From NCBI GenBank assembly GCA_043823435.1, contig JBDRAV010000002.1, positions 1 to 59,754 on the forward strand: a stretch of 59,754 nt of DNA, given 5' to 3'. Numbering within the stretch: the first letter of the stretch is position 1; each line of letters opens with the position of its first letter. Origin of the DNA: Candidatus Omnitrophota bacterium (lineage in GTDB: Bacteria > Omnitrophota > Gorgyraeia > Gygaellales > Profunditerraquicolaceae). The notes below the pieces were generated by a model. That model was not told the DNA's origin. It did not search any database and worked only from the letters and a program-made list of their open reading frames with translations. This document shows positions 19,857 through 36,855 of this stretch, in pieces. The position numbers and the translations under genes are program-made.

Positions 19857-19915
19857 AGGGACACTTCTTAACCCAATCGAGGGACACTTCTTCAGCCAAT
19901 CGGAGAAGTGTCCCT
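19857..19915. repeat. REP-like palindromic cluster (GGGACACTTCT family), left flank of RAYT
   Basis: AGGGACACTTCTT at 19857 and 19880; AGAAGTGTCCCT at 19904. Confidence 0.85.
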
Positions 19916-19955
19916 TTTAATTAATGGGGAATCAGTTAAAGAATAAGCGATAATA

Positions 19956-20438
19956 TTATATTTCTAGTATGGGATCTAAAAGGCCTGATCCCCTATTTAA
20001 CGTCCTGGATTTCCAACTACTCCATTCGTATCCAAGTGGCGATGAGGTCAAATCCGCTCTAACTGGATTATATTCGATGTAGTTTAGGCAATCTACAAGA
20101 TACTGATCTTTTTGGATAATCATATTCTTAAATCTTCCCTGCCAAAGGTGGCCAACCTTATTATATTTCTTATTGAACCAAATTGTATATGTCAGATCGA
20201 TACCTTGCATAAGCTTTCCTAGATCGTTTATTTTCTTAACTTCAATAATTAGATGGATGTGATTAGGCATCAGACAATAGGCGTATAGCTTGAAGTGGTA
20301 TTTTCTTTTATAATGGACCAGGATTTCCAGATATTTGTTAAAGTCCACATCTTCTAAAAAGATTTTTTGTTTTTGATTACCCCGTTGAATAATATGGTAA
20401 CACACATTTGGTATTATTAATCTAGGGCCCCTAGTCAT
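19956..20438 (-). mobile_element. REP-associated tyrosine transposase (RAYT, Y1 HUH family), apparently intact
   Basis: YHIIQRGN, YCLMPNHIHL (HUH), GHLWQGRF, YIEYNPVRA, YEWSSW; ATG 20438 with GGAGG RBS; flanked by REP-like palindromes. Confidence 0.9.
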
Positions 20439-20455
20439 ATTTATCACCTCCTCTA

Positions 20456-20485
20456 TAATAGACGAAGCAAAAGGGAGTTTCTAAC
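20456..20485 (-). promoter_or_regulatory. Putative ECF-sigma promoter driving RAYT
   Basis: Minus strand GTTAGAAAC-N12-CGTCTATTA; same motif and spacing as at 21234 and 25334. Confidence 0.65.
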
Positions 20486-20502
20486 ATAAAATTTTATATT
20501 AA

Positions 20503-20561
20503 GGGGACACTTCTCGCTTTGACCGAAGAAGTGTCCCTTGATTGTCAGGAGAAGTGTCCCT
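20503..20561. repeat. REP-like palindromic cluster, right flank of RAYT
   Basis: GGGGACACTTCT at 20503; AGAAGTGTCCCT at 20527 and 20550. Confidence 0.85.
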
Positions 20562-20607
20562 AAAAAAGATTTATAATTAGGTTAGTTGGTGCTATAATAC
20601 GGCTATT

Positions 20608-21233: not shown

Positions 21234-21263
21234 GTTAGATTTCATACATTTTTACGTCTATTA
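21234..21263 (+). promoter_or_regulatory. Putative ECF-sigma promoter of the anti-sigma/CHAT operon
   Basis: GTTAGATTT-N12-CGTCTATTA; ATG begins 22 nt after the motif end. Confidence 0.7.
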
Positions 21264-21284: not shown

Positions 21285-21989
21285 ATGCCTGATACATTAG
21301 AGCGGTTAATAAGGATAGTTTATAAAAAGTGGAAACAGGCTCATCGATTAACGCAGGAGTCGCATCCAGATGAAGAAGCATGGGTTTGTTTTTTTGATGG
21401 TAGGCTGTCGGCGCAAGAAGATGAGCGCATAAAGGAGCATTTAATAAGTTGCGAATTTTGTTCAGAGATTGTTGCTGCTGTAGCCAGATCGGAGCCGGTT
21501 CCCGTAAAAACTTTGCCTAAAGATTTAGCAGAGCGCGCGAAGGATTTAGTGGTATCGCAGGAGAGATTTTCTGTCGCAGAAATAATCATTCTACTTAAAG
21601 AAAAGATGCTGGAGATATTGTCTATTACCGGGGATGTGCTGGTCGGGGAGGAATTTGTGCCTGCACCGGTATTGCGTAGCCGCAAGATAAAAGAATTTAA
21701 AGACGAGATCACTATTTTAAAAGATTTCAAAGATATAAGAGTCGAGGTAAAAATACAAAATAAGCTTGGCCAATCCTTTGATCTGTTTGTCTTTGTGAAA
21801 GATAAACAGAGCCACCGTATAATTAAAGACTTAAGAATTACTCTTCTTAAGGGGGACTTAGAACTCGAATCCTATCTTACCGCTTCCGATAAGGTAATCT
21901 TTGAGCATGTGCTGGCAGGAAAATATACCGTTGAGATATCAAATGCCGATAATAAAATTGCCTCGGTATTGCTTGATATCAGAAAATAG
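21285..21989 (+). CDS. Zinc-finger (ZAS) anti-sigma factor, apparently soluble, with a C-terminal beta-rich domain
   Basis: HPDEE...GRLSAQEDERIKEHLISCEFC (HxxxCxxC); no clean TM helix. Confidence 0.8.
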   Translation: MPDTLERLIRIVYKKWKQAHRLTQESHPDEEAWVCFFDGRLSAQEDERIKEHLISCEFCSEIVAAVARSEPVPVKTLPKDLAERAKDLVVSQERFSVAEIIILLKEKMLEILSITGDVLVGEEFVPAPVLRSRKIKEFKDEITILKDFKDIRVEVKIQNKLGQSFDLFVFVKDKQSHRIIKDLRITLLKGDLELESYLTASDKVIFEHVLAGKYTVEISNADNKIASVLLDIRK

Positions 21990-21995
21990 TAGCGC

Positions 21996-24197
21996 ATGGA
22001 AGAGCGTAATGCCCTGATTTTAGAGATTCTAAGGCATGACACCACGTTTAGAATGAGCATTTCTGAACGGAATGATCTTGTCCAGACCGTAAAACACTAT
22101 AGTCAACTCAGCGTATCATTTGCGGAAATAAATAAGTTATGCCGGGAAACAATAGAGATACTTAATAGGGCAAGCAAGAAATCCGCTTTAACCCTCGACC
22201 ATATAAATAATCTTAAAAAAACAGGCCAGATACTCTGGGATCATCTGTTTACCAGGTCGGTAAAAGACAGGTTGACTACGACCATAATTAAAGAGCTGGT
22301 TCTTTCCATAGATGAGGAGTTAATTAATATCCCCTGGGAACTCTTGTATAATGGCAATGAGTTCATGTGTCTTAAATTCAATTTGGGGCGGTTGGTCAGG
22401 ACTAAAGAACAGGTTGCCCCAAGGCAATACCGCAGCTTAAAGGCTACCCTTAAGATGTTGATATTGGCTAACCCGAATAATGACCTAAGATCAGCTTACC
22501 TTGAAGGTGTGTATATAAAGAATCAGTTTGACCGTAGAAGGAACGAGATCGGCATCGATTTCAAATCTACCCATATTGATACGCTGTATGTAAAAAAGAA
22601 TCTGCGGGATTATGATATCGTGCATTTTGCCGGTCACTGCGAATATGATAGTAATAATCCGAAGAATACGGGATGGGTTTTAAGCGATGGAAGATTTACT
22701 ACGGCGGATATTCTGGCTTTAGGCGAAAGCCTTTCTTTCCCGGCCTTGATATTTTCTAACGCATGCCACTCCGCCAAGGCCGTAACCGAAATAGAAGATT
22801 TGGATTACCACGAGAAGAATTATAGCCTTGCATCAGCATTTTTGTTTTCAGGAGTAAGGCATTATATCGGCACTATATGGAAGGTAGAAGACCCGGTGAG
22901 CTTAGCCTTTGCCAGGGAATTCTATACGCATTTGATTAAAGGCAATTCCGTGGGCGAATGCATGCGTCTTTCGCGCCTGAAATTAATTAAAGAATATGGC
23001 ATCGGCACTATATCGTGGGCGAGTTACATCCTTTACGGAAACCCGGATTTTGCATTGTTCAGGCCTAAGCCTCACCCAGCGCCATTAAAATTTAAAAAGG
23101 GTGTTTCTTTATACAAAAAACAGATAGTAAGAGTCCTTTTGGCGGCTTTTGCCTTCTCTATAATTTTGTTTTTTTATACATGGCTGCCTACCAGGAATCC
23201 TACTACCTTGTTTTCTTTTATCAAGTCCAAGAAACTATTCCTAAAGGGGAATAATCAGGAAGTTATACTGATTTGTAGCCGAATCATAGAAAGGGAACCG
23301 TCGTTTCTGGCGGCCTATCCGTTAATAGCGGATACGCATGAAAGGATAGGCGATAGAGATAAGGCGTTAAAATATTATTTTGATTACGCCTTCGCCAGCG
23401 AAAAGAAGCACGATAAAAAACACCTGTCTTCTGCTTATATCGGGATTGCGTGGTCTTATCATCAGCAAGGAGAATATCCTAAGGCCTTAGATTTCTACAA
23501 CAAGGCAGCCGCATTAAGCAGGGAAGCCCGCGACAAGCTGAACGAAGCGGTTGCTCTCAGGAAATTGGCGGTCTGGCATATGGACAAAGAAGATTATGAT
23601 AAGGCGCTAGAATTACTCACAAAAAGTTCCGAGATCAACCGTGAAAGAGGGCGGCAGTATGAACATAAATACAATCTGGCCTGCGATTATTTTGATATGG
23701 GCCTAGTTTTTTCCAATAAGGACGATTTTACTACAGCCAAGGAGTTCTATAATAAGAGCCGCATCATTTTTGAGAAATTAAACCTAAAGAACGAATTAAG
23801 CGATTGCTATTTTAACCTTGGTGAGATATGCATTTTTCAGAAAGAATATCAGAAGGCCATGGATTATTATATGCAGGGGTTGAAGATAGATGAATCGCAG
23901 GACGATAAGCCGAGCCTGGCAAGTGATTATAATATGATAGGAGAATTATATCTGGAGATAAATGATCTCCAGCAGGCCGAGAAATTCTTTAACCACTCGG
24001 TTATTATTTCCAAACAGATAAATGCCCGTCCGGAATTAGCATCGGCGTGCTATAATCTAGGGATTCTGTATAAAAATAATGGCAGAAAGAGCAAAGCGCG
24101 GGATTATCTCAGGCAAGCTCAGGAGATATACCGTATGATGGATACTTCGGATTACCTGGAAATCAGAGAAGAGCTTATAAGCCTTGATAACCAATAG
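21996..24197 (+). CDS. CHAT (caspase-like) protease with a TM helix and TPR repeats
   Basis: IPWELL, IVHFAGH (His), IFSNAC (Cys), YIGTIWKV, WASYILYGNP; TM IVRVLLAAFAFSIILFFYTWL; about 8 TPR-like repeats. Confidence 0.88.
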   Translation: MEERNALILEILRHDTTFRMSISERNDLVQTVKHYSQLSVSFAEINKLCRETIEILNRASKKSALTLDHINNLKKTGQILWDHLFTRSVKDRLTTTIIKELVLSIDEELINIPWELLYNGNEFMCLKFNLGRLVRTKEQVAPRQYRSLKATLKMLILANPNNDLRSAYLEGVYIKNQFDRRRNEIGIDFKSTHIDTLYVKKNLRDYDIVHFAGHCEYDSNNPKNTGWVLSDGRFTTADILALGESLSFPALIFSNACHSAKAVTEIEDLDYHEKNYSLASAFLFSGVRHYIGTIWKVEDPVSLAFAREFYTHLIKGNSVGECMRLSRLKLIKEYGIGTISWASYILYGNPDFALFRPKPHPAPLKFKKGVSLYKKQIVRVLLAAFAFSIILFFYTWLPTRNPTTLFSFIKSKKLFLKGNNQEVILICSRIIEREPSFLAAYPLIADTHERIGDRDKALKYYFDYAFASEKKHDKKHLSSAYIGIAWSYHQQGEYPKALDFYNKAAALSREARDKLNEAVALRKLAVWHMDKEDYDKALELLTKSSEINRERGRQYEHKYNLACDYFDMGLVFSNKDDFTTAKEFYNKSRIIFEKLNLKNELSDCYFNLGEICIFQKEYQKAMDYYMQGLKIDESQDDKPSLASDYNMIGELYLEINDLQQAEKFFNHSVIISKQINARPELASACYNLGILYKNNGRKSKARDYLRQAQEIYRMMDTSDYLEIREELISLDNQ

Positions 24198-24206
24198 GAG
24201 ACCTTT

Positions 24207-24770
24207 ATGAGAATATTGTCGGTTCTGGCAATAATATTATTCTTACTAAATGTTGCAGGTTGTTCTATGCCGATAGCATCTACCCGAGGGTCTTTATACG
24301 GTTTTACCAGGGTAGAGAAGAGGTCCAAAGGTATGTTTAAAGGCAGCAAAACCGTAACTATCCAAGATTTCCGTCAGAACGAGGCATACGATGAAGACAT
24401 AACAGACCTTAAGCAAAGGGTGGATGAATATATTTTACGTCATCCGGAATTAAGCGAATCAGTTAAGAAAGATTTACGGGAAATAAAAGTAACTCATGGG
24501 GCAACCAGCGATGAGGCTATTCTATTATTAGGTAAGCCTGATAAGGTGATGAGGGCATCGGGAGAAGGCCGGTACGGTGCCACGGAGATATGGATTTACA
24601 GGATAAGCAAGTTACGGTTCTTCACTGTATTTATTTTTCCAGTATTTCCTGTCCATGAAGGGCATTACTTGTATTTTAAAGACGGCGTGCTGGTAGAAAT
24701 AGAGCATCGTTCTCTTGAGCAGACTGTCAAGCAGGGGCAGGGGGCGGGGCTTACCGAATCCAAATCTTAG
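24207..24770 (+). CDS. Lipoprotein with a BamE/SmpA-like motif
   Basis: Lipobox VAGC; GATSDEAILLLGKPDKV...EIWIY. Confidence 0.65.
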   Translation: MRILSVLAIILFLLNVAGCSMPIASTRGSLYGFTRVEKRSKGMFKGSKTVTIQDFRQNEAYDEDITDLKQRVDEYILRHPELSESVKKDLREIKVTHGATSDEAILLLGKPDKVMRASGEGRYGATEIWIYRISKLRFFTVFIFPVFPVHEGHYLYFKDGVLVEIEHRSLEQTVKQGQGAGLTESKS

Positions 24771-24863
24771 GAGGGAATCCGATATTTTTATTGAAAAAAA
24801 TAATAAAATATGTAGAATCTTAACTAACGCCACGCAGATGGTATTATAGGGCTGGAAAGATAT

Positions 24864-25280
24864 ATGAAAAGAGCCGTAATTATTTACTTACTCTTGTTTA
24901 TGGGGATATCGGCGGGATACGTTTATGCCCAGAAATCCCAAGAATATAACGCTTCCGGGGGTACCCTTGAAGTAGAGGCAGGAAATATTTTTGTAATCGA
25001 GCTTAAATCTAATCAGGTTATAGGTTTAAAATGGCGGCTCGCCAGTCCGCTTGATACAGACATACTTAAGCTTGTAAGCGTAGAGTTCGTAAGGAGTACA
25101 GCTAGAATAATAGGCATTCCGGGTAAAGAAACATGGACCTTTAAAGCCCTTAAGCCGGGTGAGGTAACGATTTATTTAAAGTATAGCCGTTCCCCGTCGA
25201 CAAAAGTCGCCTCGGAAGAAGAGAAGGTCTACATAGTTACCGTTACAGAACCTTCCAAGCAGAAGAAACAGTCTGAATAA
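24864..25280 (+). CDS. Secreted chagasin/I42-family protease-inhibitor-like protein
   Basis: Signal peptide; FVIELKSN..GLKW, GIPGKETWTFKALKPGEVTIYLKYSR; own sigma70-like promoter TTGAAA-16-TAGAAT at 24791-24818. Confidence 0.75.
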   Translation: MKRAVIIYLLLFMGISAGYVYAQKSQEYNASGGTLEVEAGNIFVIELKSNQVIGLKWRLASPLDTDILKLVSVEFVRSTARIIGIPGKETWTFKALKPGEVTIYLKYSRSPSTKVASEEEKVYIVTVTEPSKQKKQSE

Positions 25281-25333: not shown

Positions 25334-25363
25334 GTTAGATTTTCTCGACCTCTTCGTCTATTA
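25334..25363 (+). promoter_or_regulatory. Putative ECF-sigma promoter of the beta-propeller gene
   Basis: GTTAGATTT-N12-CGTCTATTA; ATG begins 22 nt after the motif end. Confidence 0.7.
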
Positions 25364-25384: not shown

Positions 25385-26950
25385 ATGAAAAAACATACGG
25401 TATTTGCGGTAATTGCAGGTTTATTTCTCTTTGGCGCAGGGGTTGAATCTTTGGCAGGAGAATTATCTTGGCAGGATATAAGCAGGGAGGTCTTAGATTT
25501 AAAGACGGTTTTGGTGAATCCCGATAATCCGGATAATATTTATATAGGAGCGCATAACGGGATTTTTAAGACAAGCAATGGGGGCGCAGGTTGGAGAAAT
25601 ATCCTTTCCCTAAAGGGCCGGAACCACCAGATAAATTTTTTATCCTTCAACCTTGGCTATAGAAATTCTCTATACGCAGCCACAGGAAACGGACTTTTTT
25701 ATAGTTTTGACGATGGAGAAACCTGGAAGAAGATTTTTAGAGGCAAAAACTATCTTGAGAGTGAATGTACCTGTGTTGTAGCTTTATCAAACCTTATCTA
25801 TCTCGGCACAAAAGGAGGGCTCTTTATAAGCAAGGACAAAGGCCGCACCTGGCATAAGGATAAAGGCGTGCTGGGCAATAGCCCGATCTTGGCCATAGTC
25901 TATAATGCTAAAGATGCGGCATATATTTATGCCGCCTGTTTAAGCGGGGTATTTATAAGTGGAAACCTGGGGCAATCATGGGAGAGGATTTTCGCTGCCC
26001 TGGTTATAGGAGATGTTTCTGAGAAAAAAGAAGCGGCCGAGGAGCGCGATGATGATGAAGAGAGGTCTTTGGGGGTAAGGCATATTGCCTGCGACCCTCA
26101 TAATTTAAATTGTCTTTACTTAGCTACATCCAGAGGAGTTCATAAGAGCTGTGACAGGGGGCGGAGTTGGGAACAGTTTCCCGGTGACGGCCTGCTTAAC
26201 AAAGAAGTAAAATTCCTTCTTTTTTCTAATAATGGTGATTTTTATGCCGTTAGTAAATCAGGAATATTTGAGTATGCGGCTGGCCGTTGGCAGGAATTAT
26301 CGCTTGGCCTGACAGCGCAGGAGATTAGATCCTTGGCCTCAGATAATCAGAATAATTTATATGCCGCCTGCGATAAAGGTCTATTTAAAACAGTATATTC
26401 GGATTATAAGGAAAGAGGAGATCTAATGTCGTTATATTATATGGATATACCGGAGATCAACGAAGTCCAGCAAGCGGCAATTAAGTATGCGCAGGTAGAA
26501 CCGGATAAGATCATCCGATGGAGAAAGCGCGCGGCAAGAAAGGCAATATTGCCGCGGGTTAGCGTAGGTTTGGATAGGAGCGCGACAGACCTGTGGCATT
26601 GGGAGTCAGGGTCGACCACAAAATCAGAAGATGACATATTAAGGAAGGGGCGTGATGCTATAGAATGGGATATATCTTTAAGCTGGGATTTAAGTGAGCT
26701 TATCTGGAACGATGCCCAGACTTCCATTGATGTGCGTTCGAGGTTGATGGTGGAGCTTCGCGATGACATCCTGGATGAGGTAACAAAATTATATTTCGAA
26801 CGCATAAGGGTCAAGATGGAACTGGATAACATATCTATTGAAGATAGAAGAAAGAGATTTGAAAAGGAACTGAAACTAAAGGAACTGACAGCTTTTCTTG
26901 ATGGTCTTACCGGAGGATACTTTTCATCGCACCTGCCTAACCAGAAATAG
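25385..26950 (+). CDS. Secreted BNR/Asp-box beta-propeller protein with a TolC/OEP-like C-terminal segment
   Basis: Signal peptide; repeated S.D.G.TW boxes; QQAAIKYA...ILPRVSVGLD...WDISLSWDL...VTKLYFER. Confidence 0.7.
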   Translation: MKKHTVFAVIAGLFLFGAGVESLAGELSWQDISREVLDLKTVLVNPDNPDNIYIGAHNGIFKTSNGGAGWRNILSLKGRNHQINFLSFNLGYRNSLYAATGNGLFYSFDDGETWKKIFRGKNYLESECTCVVALSNLIYLGTKGGLFISKDKGRTWHKDKGVLGNSPILAIVYNAKDAAYIYAACLSGVFISGNLGQSWERIFAALVIGDVSEKKEAAEERDDDEERSLGVRHIACDPHNLNCLYLATSRGVHKSCDRGRSWEQFPGDGLLNKEVKFLLFSNNGDFYAVSKSGIFEYAAGRWQELSLGLTAQEIRSLASDNQNNLYAACDKGLFKTVYSDYKERGDLMSLYYMDIPEINEVQQAAIKYAQVEPDKIIRWRKRAARKAILPRVSVGLDRSATDLWHWESGSTTKSEDDILRKGRDAIEWDISLSWDLSELIWNDAQTSIDVRSRLMVELRDDILDEVTKLYFERIRVKMELDNISIEDRRKRFEKELKLKELTAFLDGLTGGYFSSHLPNQK

Positions 26951-36738: not shown

Positions 36739-36855
36739 AGGGACACTTCTTGACTCAAAGCAAGAAGTGTCCCTGACTCAAAGCAAGAAGTGTCCCTGAT
36801 TTTTTTCTAATGTTAAAAGGGGGACACTTCTCCGATTGGCTGAAGAAGTGTCCCT
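36739..36855. repeat. REP-like cluster (GGGACACTTCT family) between pta and ackA
   Basis: Left arms at 36739 and 36821, right arms at 36763, 36786 and 36844; 36821-36855 is the exact reverse complement of 19880-19914. Confidence 0.9.

Follow-up and report, generated by a model that had tools for sequence, protein, structure and literature searches.

A REP-associated transposase gene of Omnitrophota as a probable member of a competence-type ECF sigma regulon

A stretch of 59,754 nucleotides from an Omnitrophota genome (contig C2:1-59754, here called the window; the source genome comprises 786 kb in 21 contigs and is 58% complete) carries a gene for a repetitive extragenic palindromic (REP)-associated tyrosine transposase (RAYT). 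It lies divergent from a gene for a sigma factor of the extracytoplasmic function (ECF) group, as an earlier, sequence-only reading of this DNA had stated. That reading also proposed that the regulon of the sigma factor, its anti-sigma factor and a CHAT-TPR protein has the RAYT wired into it. Comparison with 41 Omnitrophota genomes, relatives of 1-2 Mb, supports this wiring at the sequence level: the RAYT is very probably a conserved, trans-regulated member of a competence-type ECF regulon and not just a neighbour of the sigma gene. As the same promoter heads comEA-like genes, spoVG-dprA, comM, radC and recA, the best explanation of the whole, which we hold to be probable, is that the RAYT is transcribed from an ECF-sigma promoter and is co-induced with a competence-type programme.

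The region upstream of the RAYT and the 65 nt that separate the sigma gene from the anti-sigma gene have GTTAGA-N15-CGTCTATT in common, with unrelated spacers, confirming the bipartite motif that had been noticed at both places (Table 1). This 14-base motif occurs in five exact copies in the source genome, compared with ∼0.1 expected (1.57 Mb, both strands). Only one copy was found at one mismatch, and at two mismatches the two matches, against 11 for the reversed control, represent background. As matches fall off this steeply, the motif is sharply defined and the regulon small. We rejected a lineage-wide general promoter type, since the source genome has only six good sites and its two-mismatch matches are background. 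The exact sites lie ahead of the RAYT, the anti-sigma/CHAT operon, a secreted beta-propeller gene and comM (contig C15), and ∼110 nt 5' of recA (C4); the one-mismatch site lies ahead of spoVG (C3). Most of these sites are followed, 18-26 nt further on at most, by a ribosome-binding site and an ATG, and the promoter geometry of the RAYT is also seen at the anti-sigma, beta-propeller and comM genes.

Across the 41 genomes, the exact motif was present in 0-17 copies per genome, whereas the reversed-pattern control gave none in any of them. A chance resemblance of the two upstream regions, without function, has the shortness of the boxes as the sole point in its favour and is hardly credible given the five exact matches in the source genome and the empty control. 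In addition, the motif is kept at orthologous positions whereas its spacers vary freely. We therefore rejected chance on the genome counts, the reversed controls and the RAYT loci of the relatives.

Among the 30 best RAYT loci of these relatives, 20 carry the motif (at most two mismatches) ahead of the gene, 17-24 nt from the start codon. Their layout is conserved: after the REP end come an AT-rich stretch (17-20 nt), GTTAGA, 15 nt of free spacer, CGTCTATT, the ribosome-binding site and ATG. The motif is conserved at these loci whereas spacer and flanks vary freely, and it tracks the sigma ortholog of the host; both observations support the proposed wiring. RAYTs in genomes without a sigma ortholog (G026, G030, G031, G037 and G015) lack the motif, and the association between RAYT motif and sigma ortholog gave a Fisher p of 0.002, which is an indication and not a strict probability because the genomes are related. 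In the RAYT tree, the motif follows possession of the sigma factor by the host and not the RAYT clade, with five changes.

The sequence-only reading had counted the same motif at RAYTs without an adjacent ECF gene as evidence against itself. Such RAYTs exist, with exact motifs, in G017 (same contig, at a distance of 517 kb), G016:C13, G019 (three), G036 (three), G020 and G021 (two each), and G009, G010, G014 and G023, and they include paralogs only 37-45% identical to the window protein. Sigma factors act in trans, and the motif is also present at comM, recA, comEA, radC and spoVG-dprA, so that these sigma-distant sites do not refute the wiring. They strengthen regulon membership and show that adjacency is not the mechanism.

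Clear orthologs of the ECF sigma factor were found in 29 of the 41 genomes (43-74% identity). The motif is present in 26 of these 29 genomes versus four of the 12 others; a divergent ortholog exists in two of the latter four. In each of the 11 related loci that were fetched, the motif lies between the sigma stop and the anti-sigma start, with free spacers. A second small sigma factor (∼275 aa) was rejected as the reader of the motif, since it is RpoD-like and occurs in 40 of the 41 genomes regardless of the motif, including all motif-less ones where it could be scored. Two genomes, G002 (96% complete) and G021, have RpoD, the ∼275-aa sigma factor and this ECF sigma factor as their only sigmas, and hold 10 and 17 exact motif sites, respectively. 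A CGTC -10 element with a fixed 15-nt spacer is typical of ECF promoters. Based on the co-occurrence pattern, the sigma content of G002 and G021, the position of the motif and its ECF-like CGTC -10 element, we infer that the neighbouring ECF sigma factor reads GTTAGA-N15-CGTCTATT.

The content of the regulon was surveyed in the DNA downstream of ∼140 exact-motif sites from 20 relatives, in which the first genes were identified and checked against Pfam. Besides the anti-sigma/CHAT operon, the recurrent motif-headed genes encode SpoVG (14 further sites), ORF6N (14), the beta-propeller protein (13), a small ComEA-type protein with a helix-hairpin-helix and a membrane anchor (12), and RadC (4-5). 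The motif was found at 21 of 30 comM loci and at 11 of 30 recA loci, in the latter always 80-120 nt upstream. Although dprA is directly headed by the motif only once, in at least 12 genomes it lies 1-3 kb downstream of a motif-headed spoVG; the order in the source genome is spoVG-aroK-dprA-topA. Occasional motif-headed genes encode toxin-antitoxin proteins (MazE, BrnT, CopG, Gp49, HTH_37), GmrSD, Cas3, a DNA methylase, an integrase and a Bro-N (DinD-like) protein. As competence regulons (ComX, SigH, Sxy) are recognised by the combination of ComEA, DprA, ComM, RadC and RecA, we infer a competence-type DNA-uptake and recombination programme, with an SOS-like or defence response as the main alternative. 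The generic stress response that had been suggested as an output is not borne out by this composition, which points to natural competence and recombination.

Several observations weigh against an ECF-read, competence-type regulon that includes the RAYT. Three genomes (G022, G033 and G038) have the sigma factor and no exact motif site. Conversely, G028, which belongs to another family and is 94% complete, has seven exact sites, including those at comM, recA, spoVG and comEA-like genes, and no detectable sigma ortholog, reflecting either an assembly gap or a very divergent sigma factor. Another possible reading of the motif is a weak sigma-70-like site (TAGAAA-17-TATTAT), and downstream of the motif, recA has retained a consensus sigma-70 promoter of its own. 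Neither comEC nor pilus genes were among the exact-motif sites examined, for which no dedicated search was made, so that the term competence is drawn from the DNA-processing genes and comEA. Several members of the family of the source genome (G007, G008, G013 and G022) apparently have no RAYT, which is therefore not needed for the existence of the regulon. Furthermore, the 200 nt upstream of rayT in Escherichia coli K-12 (247440-247640) contain no CRP-S site (TGCGA-N6-TCGCA, at most two mismatches).

Some of these points would suit a different reader of the motif, be it another sigma factor or RpoD aided by an activator. In that case, the ECF operon would be just one target among others and the RAYT would stand outside the CHAT/anti-sigma switch. 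The sites in G028 and the overlap with a weak sigma-70-like site speak for such a reader. So does the sigma gene itself, whose own upstream region has a sigma-70-type site in place of the ECF motif. However, co-occurrence with the motif is seen for the ECF ortholog but not for the universal 275-aa sigma factor, the motif always lies between the sigma and anti-sigma genes, its -10 element and spacer are typical of ECF promoters, and besides the ECF sigma factor G002 and G021 have only RpoD and the 275-aa one. We consider a different reader quite improbable.

In the source genome, recA (C4:5108-6400, outside the window) has a frameshift after ∼99 codons, which is an assembly error or marks a pseudogene. 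The interval between the ECF motif and this gene contains a hairpin that has a T-run, and also a sigma-70 promoter with perfect boxes, TTGACA-17-TATAAT. Because both intervene, the motif at recA may give rise to a short RNA or to read-through into recA.

An SOS-like response to DNA damage or phage, in which the RAYT would be induced with repair and defence genes in place of competence, is unlikely in our view. It would account for the motif at recA, the Bro-N/DinD-like gene, the integrase, Cas3, GmrSD, the DNA methylase and many toxin-antitoxin genes, and it would fit the lack of comEC and pilus genes among the exact sites, where no dedicated search was made. LexA was found neither in the genus nor in G016 and G017, leaving room for a replacement system, and as it is missing from most genomes checked, we rejected it as an alternative controller of recA. 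However, G021 and G010 have both LexA and the regulon. Moreover, the most recurrent members, the comEA-like genes (12 sites), spoVG-dprA, comM and radC, mark competence and not SOS, and a sensor predicted to lie outside the membrane is ill-suited to sensing damaged DNA.

The gene that would be co-expressed in the proposed competence-type programme is a genuine RAYT and forms a textbook RAYT/REP pair with its repeats. Its open reading frame spans 19956-20447 (-); the true start is the ATG at 20438, with a GGAGGTG ribosome-binding site ahead, which gives a protein of 160 aa. This protein scored 63 bits against Pfam Y1_Tnp and 80.0 bits against NCBIfam REP_Tyr_transpos, exactly at the cut-off (80), versus 22.6 bits against NCBIfam transpos_IS200, under the cut-off of 55. 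H60 and H62 of the HUH motif (PNHIHL) and Y120 (YIEYNPVRA) are invariant among 18 orthologs. Although a single-sequence search against PDB sequences gave no match at E ≤ 0.01, a profile of the 18 orthologs identified E. coli TnpA-REP (PDB 4ER8) as the closest solved structure (E = 1e-9), whereas ISDra2 TnpA (IS200/IS605) reached E = 0.015 only. In the alignment to 4ER8, Y120 stands opposite tyrosine 115, which we take to be the catalytic residue, and HIH opposite HMH. The intact RAYT with NHIHL and YIEYNPVRA that had been read from the sequence is thus borne out by family scores, invariant residues and structural alignment, and the enzyme itself is of an already known kind. The assembled part of the source genome has one RAYT gene, and the relatives gave 0-14 hits per genome, mostly 1-4. 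An IS200/IS605 insertion sequence was rejected, as the gene is single copy in the assembled part of the genome, the IS200 model stays below its cut-off, and the REPs have multiplied and the gene has not.

The palindromes described as bracketing the RAYT are real repeats. The REP hairpin has the form GGGACACTTCT-N12-AGAAGTGTCCC and is arranged in mirror-image clusters on both sides of the gene, with exact GGGACACTTCT cores at 19858(+), 19881(+) and 19904(-) on one side and at 20504(+), 20527(-) and 20550(-) on the other. The window holds 11 copies of GGGACACTTCT versus 0.45 expected, and none of 100 shuffles reached 11. As single-stranded DNA (ssDNA), the flanking clusters fold into stable hairpins (z-scores -4 to -5). 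In the source genome, we counted 56 REP cores in ∼13 clusters, with 20 full hairpins. RAYT and REP sequence vary together among the relatives: GGGACACTTCT is the form found here, whereas in G002, G017 and G001 the RAYTs have the variant GGGACACCCTT at their sides. Hairpins of the GGGACACTTCT type number 11 in G016, and a few are present in G002, G006, G011, G017, G027 and G035.

Two further observations concern these repeats. Elsewhere in the source genome, a two-mismatch version of the promoter motif, TTTAGA-N15-CGTCTTTT (C16:39093-39121, -), directly borders a REP cluster, but no RAYT lies behind it; this copy may be left over from a RAYT unit that has since been lost. In the window, the upstream REP cluster ends 10 nt from the -35 box of the sigma gene's own promoter (20504-20598). 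RAYT binding or hairpin extrusion at this cluster could affect sigma expression, which would make a feedback of the RAYT on the sigma factor possible.

The gene order pyrophosphatase-RAYT (opposite strand)-sigma-anti-sigma recurs in six species of the genus, in G016 of another genus and in G040 of another family (sigma-adjacent loci in G000, G001, G002, G004, G005, G006, G016 and G040). We rejected a recent insertion of the RAYT because of this recurrence. In three genomes (G021, G007 and G017) the gap is empty, and the sigma gene lies immediately next to that for the pyrophosphatase. As the sigma-adjacent RAYTs of one genus fall into three different, well-supported RAYT clades, with differing REP variants, the locus seems to have been re-occupied, or its RAYT exchanged, more than once. 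Judged from these genomes, the gap between the pyrophosphatase and sigma genes is an old, repeatedly used site for RAYT units and not the place of a simple vertically inherited ortholog. The RAYTs at this site do not form a single orthologous lineage.

A repeatedly occupied locus is also what would be expected if RAYT and REPIN were a genomic parasite or commensal that has adapted its promoter to the competence sigma factor, a proposal that accepts regulon membership but sees no gain for the host. The enzyme would then be produced solely when ssDNA is at hand for the copying of REPINs. In line with such selfish timing, the promoter lies within the REP-bracketed unit and accompanies the RAYT to other loci, it is shared by further genes of a mobile or selfish kind (the integrase, toxin-antitoxin pairs and ORF6N), and some genomes of the family have the regulon without a RAYT. 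In contrast, the motif is about as frequent at the RAYT (20 of 30 loci) as at comM (21 of 30), and it is seen in no fewer than three subfamilies of RAYTs and in at least two families of bacteria. The gene is intact and its catalytic residues are invariant, and RAYTs have been argued to be single-copy genes that are kept vertically (PMC5581495). Selfish timing is possible, but we regard it as a rather doubtful account of the data.

For a RAYT that serves within the competence-type regulon, the neighbouring genes suggest how the switch might work. The CHAT protein has no signal peptide; its CHAT domain (75-349) is followed by one transmembrane helix (∼374-399) and by predicted tetratricopeptide (TPR) repeats (440-720). 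Because of this order, the protease domain is predicted to be intracellular and the sensor part extracellular, a topology that agrees with the extracellular signal via CHAT-TPR that had been postulated. The anti-sigma candidate is predicted to lack a transmembrane helix. In the proposed mechanism, this soluble zinc-finger protein would hold the ECF sigma factor until an outside signal is sensed by the membrane CHAT-TM-TPR protein, which would release the sigma factor, possibly by cleaving the anti-sigma factor. The free sigma factor would then transcribe from GTTAGA-N15-CGTCTATT promoters, and the RAYT would be made alongside proteins that bind, import, protect and recombine ssDNA. HUH Y1 enzymes act solely on single-stranded hairpins (TnpA-REP, IS608/ISDra2 TnpA), so this timing would fit the substrate: the RAYT would be present when ssDNA, its only substrate form, is in the cell. 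Once made, it might mobilise, copy or maintain REPINs, cut, mark or process incoming DNA that bears REPs, or act in defence. The rearrangement of REPs upon a signal that had been put forward is likewise only a possibility.

3' of the CHAT gene (window 24207-25280) lie genes for a 187-aa lipoprotein without a family match and for a secreted cysteine-peptidase inhibitor of the chagasin family (I42). As an inhibitor in one operon with a caspase-like protease, the latter may be part of the switch.

In several respects, the pair resembles the REPIN-RAYT/TnpA-REP systems of E. coli (YafM/RayT, 4ER8) and Pseudomonas fluorescens (PMC3116915, PMC5581495, PMC3479197). These share an HUH Y1 enzyme of ∼160 aa, hairpin repeats of its own that are mirrored around the gene and scattered in clusters over the genome, and covariation of RAYT and REP. 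Unlike those of Proteobacteria, the RAYTs of Omnitrophota have a conserved alternative-sigma promoter in common with DNA-uptake and recombination genes. Relatives here hold 1 to 14 RAYT paralogs (mostly 1-4) and not strictly one, and several RAYT clades occur at one locus.

A regulatory precedent comes from E. coli: according to Bertels et al. 2017 (PMC5581495), who cite Sinha et al. 2009, induction of the Sxy competence regulon also induces the RAYT yafM. In both cases the RAYT would be co-expressed with dprA, comM, comEA and other competence homologues (for E. coli as cited in PMC5581495), but the E. coli activators are the pair CRP and Sxy, whereas here an ECF sigma factor would act through a conserved cis-element directly at the gene. 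As no CRP-S site precedes E. coli rayT and matches (at most two mismatches) across the 9-kb rayT locus are at chance level, the Sxy precedent may be indirect. The E. coli gene itself lies between the dinJ-yafQ and dinB-yafNOP clusters, and its 200-nt upstream region holds REP-like GC-rich palindromes.

Similarly, the competence sigma factors of Firmicutes, ComX/SigX of streptococci and SigH of Staphylococcus and Lactobacillus, direct recA, dprA, comEA, radC and related genes as a set through a short, sharp promoter box (PMC3486894, PMC3364868). They belong to another branch of the sigma family and are controlled by peptide pheromones or Clp proteolysis, in contrast to the ECF sigma factor, ZAS-type anti-sigma factor and membrane CHAT-TPR protein proposed here. 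We know of no RAYT in a Firmicutes competence-sigma regulon. In Deinococcus radiodurans, irradiation triggers transposition of ISDra2 (IS200/IS605) via ssDNA intermediates. This is likewise a Y1 HUH enzyme whose activity is tied to the availability of ssDNA during an episode of DNA processing, but ISDra2 is a multi-copy insertion sequence activated by its substrate, whereas the RAYT is a REP-associated, non-self-copying enzyme that would be coupled at the level of transcription.

The role of RAYTs and the timing of their production are a long-standing question, for which the E. coli microarray result is the only regulatory hint in the literature consulted. Their function is described as unknown (bioRxiv 10.1101/2024.07.17.603846; PMC5581495), and Bertels, Gallie and Rainey have speculated on a CRISPR-like role against incoming DNA (PMC5581495). 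Our literature search found no paper on sigma-factor regulation of RAYTs or on competence control in Omnitrophota, and as far as the searched literature shows, the regulatory coupling is new. A promoter that is kept in several subfamilies of RAYTs and in no fewer than two families of bacteria would place RAYTs with the machinery of ssDNA import and recombination. More tentatively, and with considerable doubt, RAYTs might be regular parts of natural-transformation programmes in several distant phyla, produced alongside ComEA, DprA, ComM and RecA and acting on REP hairpins in incoming or displaced ssDNA. They could then recognise, cut or join kin DNA that carries their own REPs, or destroy foreign DNA baited by REPs. 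If so, unrelated controls would have converged on coupling RAYT to competence, an ECF sigma factor in Omnitrophota, as read from the genomes, and Sxy/CRP in E. coli, known here at second hand. Overall, this suggests a link between REP/RAYT systems and gene exchange that would bear on the spread and persistence of the repeats and may explain why different RAYT lineages repeatedly landed at one locus.

Table 1. Features of the RAYT locus and related elements in the window
Feature	Position	Strand	Remarks
Downstream REP cluster	19858..19914		Three 11-nt GGGACACTTCT cores (+,+,-) with 12-nt spacers; last two form a perfect hairpin
RAYT gene	19956..20438	-	160 aa + stop; HUH H60/H62, catalytic Tyr120
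RAYT ribosome-binding site GGAGGTG	20445..20451	-	Kept in orthologs
RAYT ECF-type promoter GTTAGA-N15-CGTCTATT	20457..20485	-	Ends 18 nt from ATG; within the REP-bracketed unit
Upstream REP cluster (+,-,-)	20504..20560		Mirrors the downstream cluster; between RAYT promoter and sigma-gene promoter
Sigma-70-type promoter-like site, TTTATA-17-TATAAT, TG before -10	20570..20598	+	Ahead of the ECF sigma gene
ECF sigma factor, 203 aa	20608..21219	+	Putative reader of the motif
Second ECF motif copy	21234..21262	+	Gap between sigma stop and anti-sigma start; in 11/11 related loci examined
Candidate soluble zinc-finger (ZAS-like) anti-sigma factor	21285..21989	+	Without transmembrane helix
CHAT (caspase-like) domain, one transmembrane helix, TPR protein	21996..24197	+	Candidate signal-sensing protease
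Third ECF motif copy	25334..25362	+	
Secreted BNR/sortilin-like beta-propeller protein	25385..26950	+	Recurrent regulon member (13 further sites in relatives)
Further cluster of the same REP family	36740..36854		Five cores

Giant genes have been reported for Omnitrophota, and one contig of the comparison set (G014:C1) contains an uninterrupted open frame of such a kind, with 31,476 codons.

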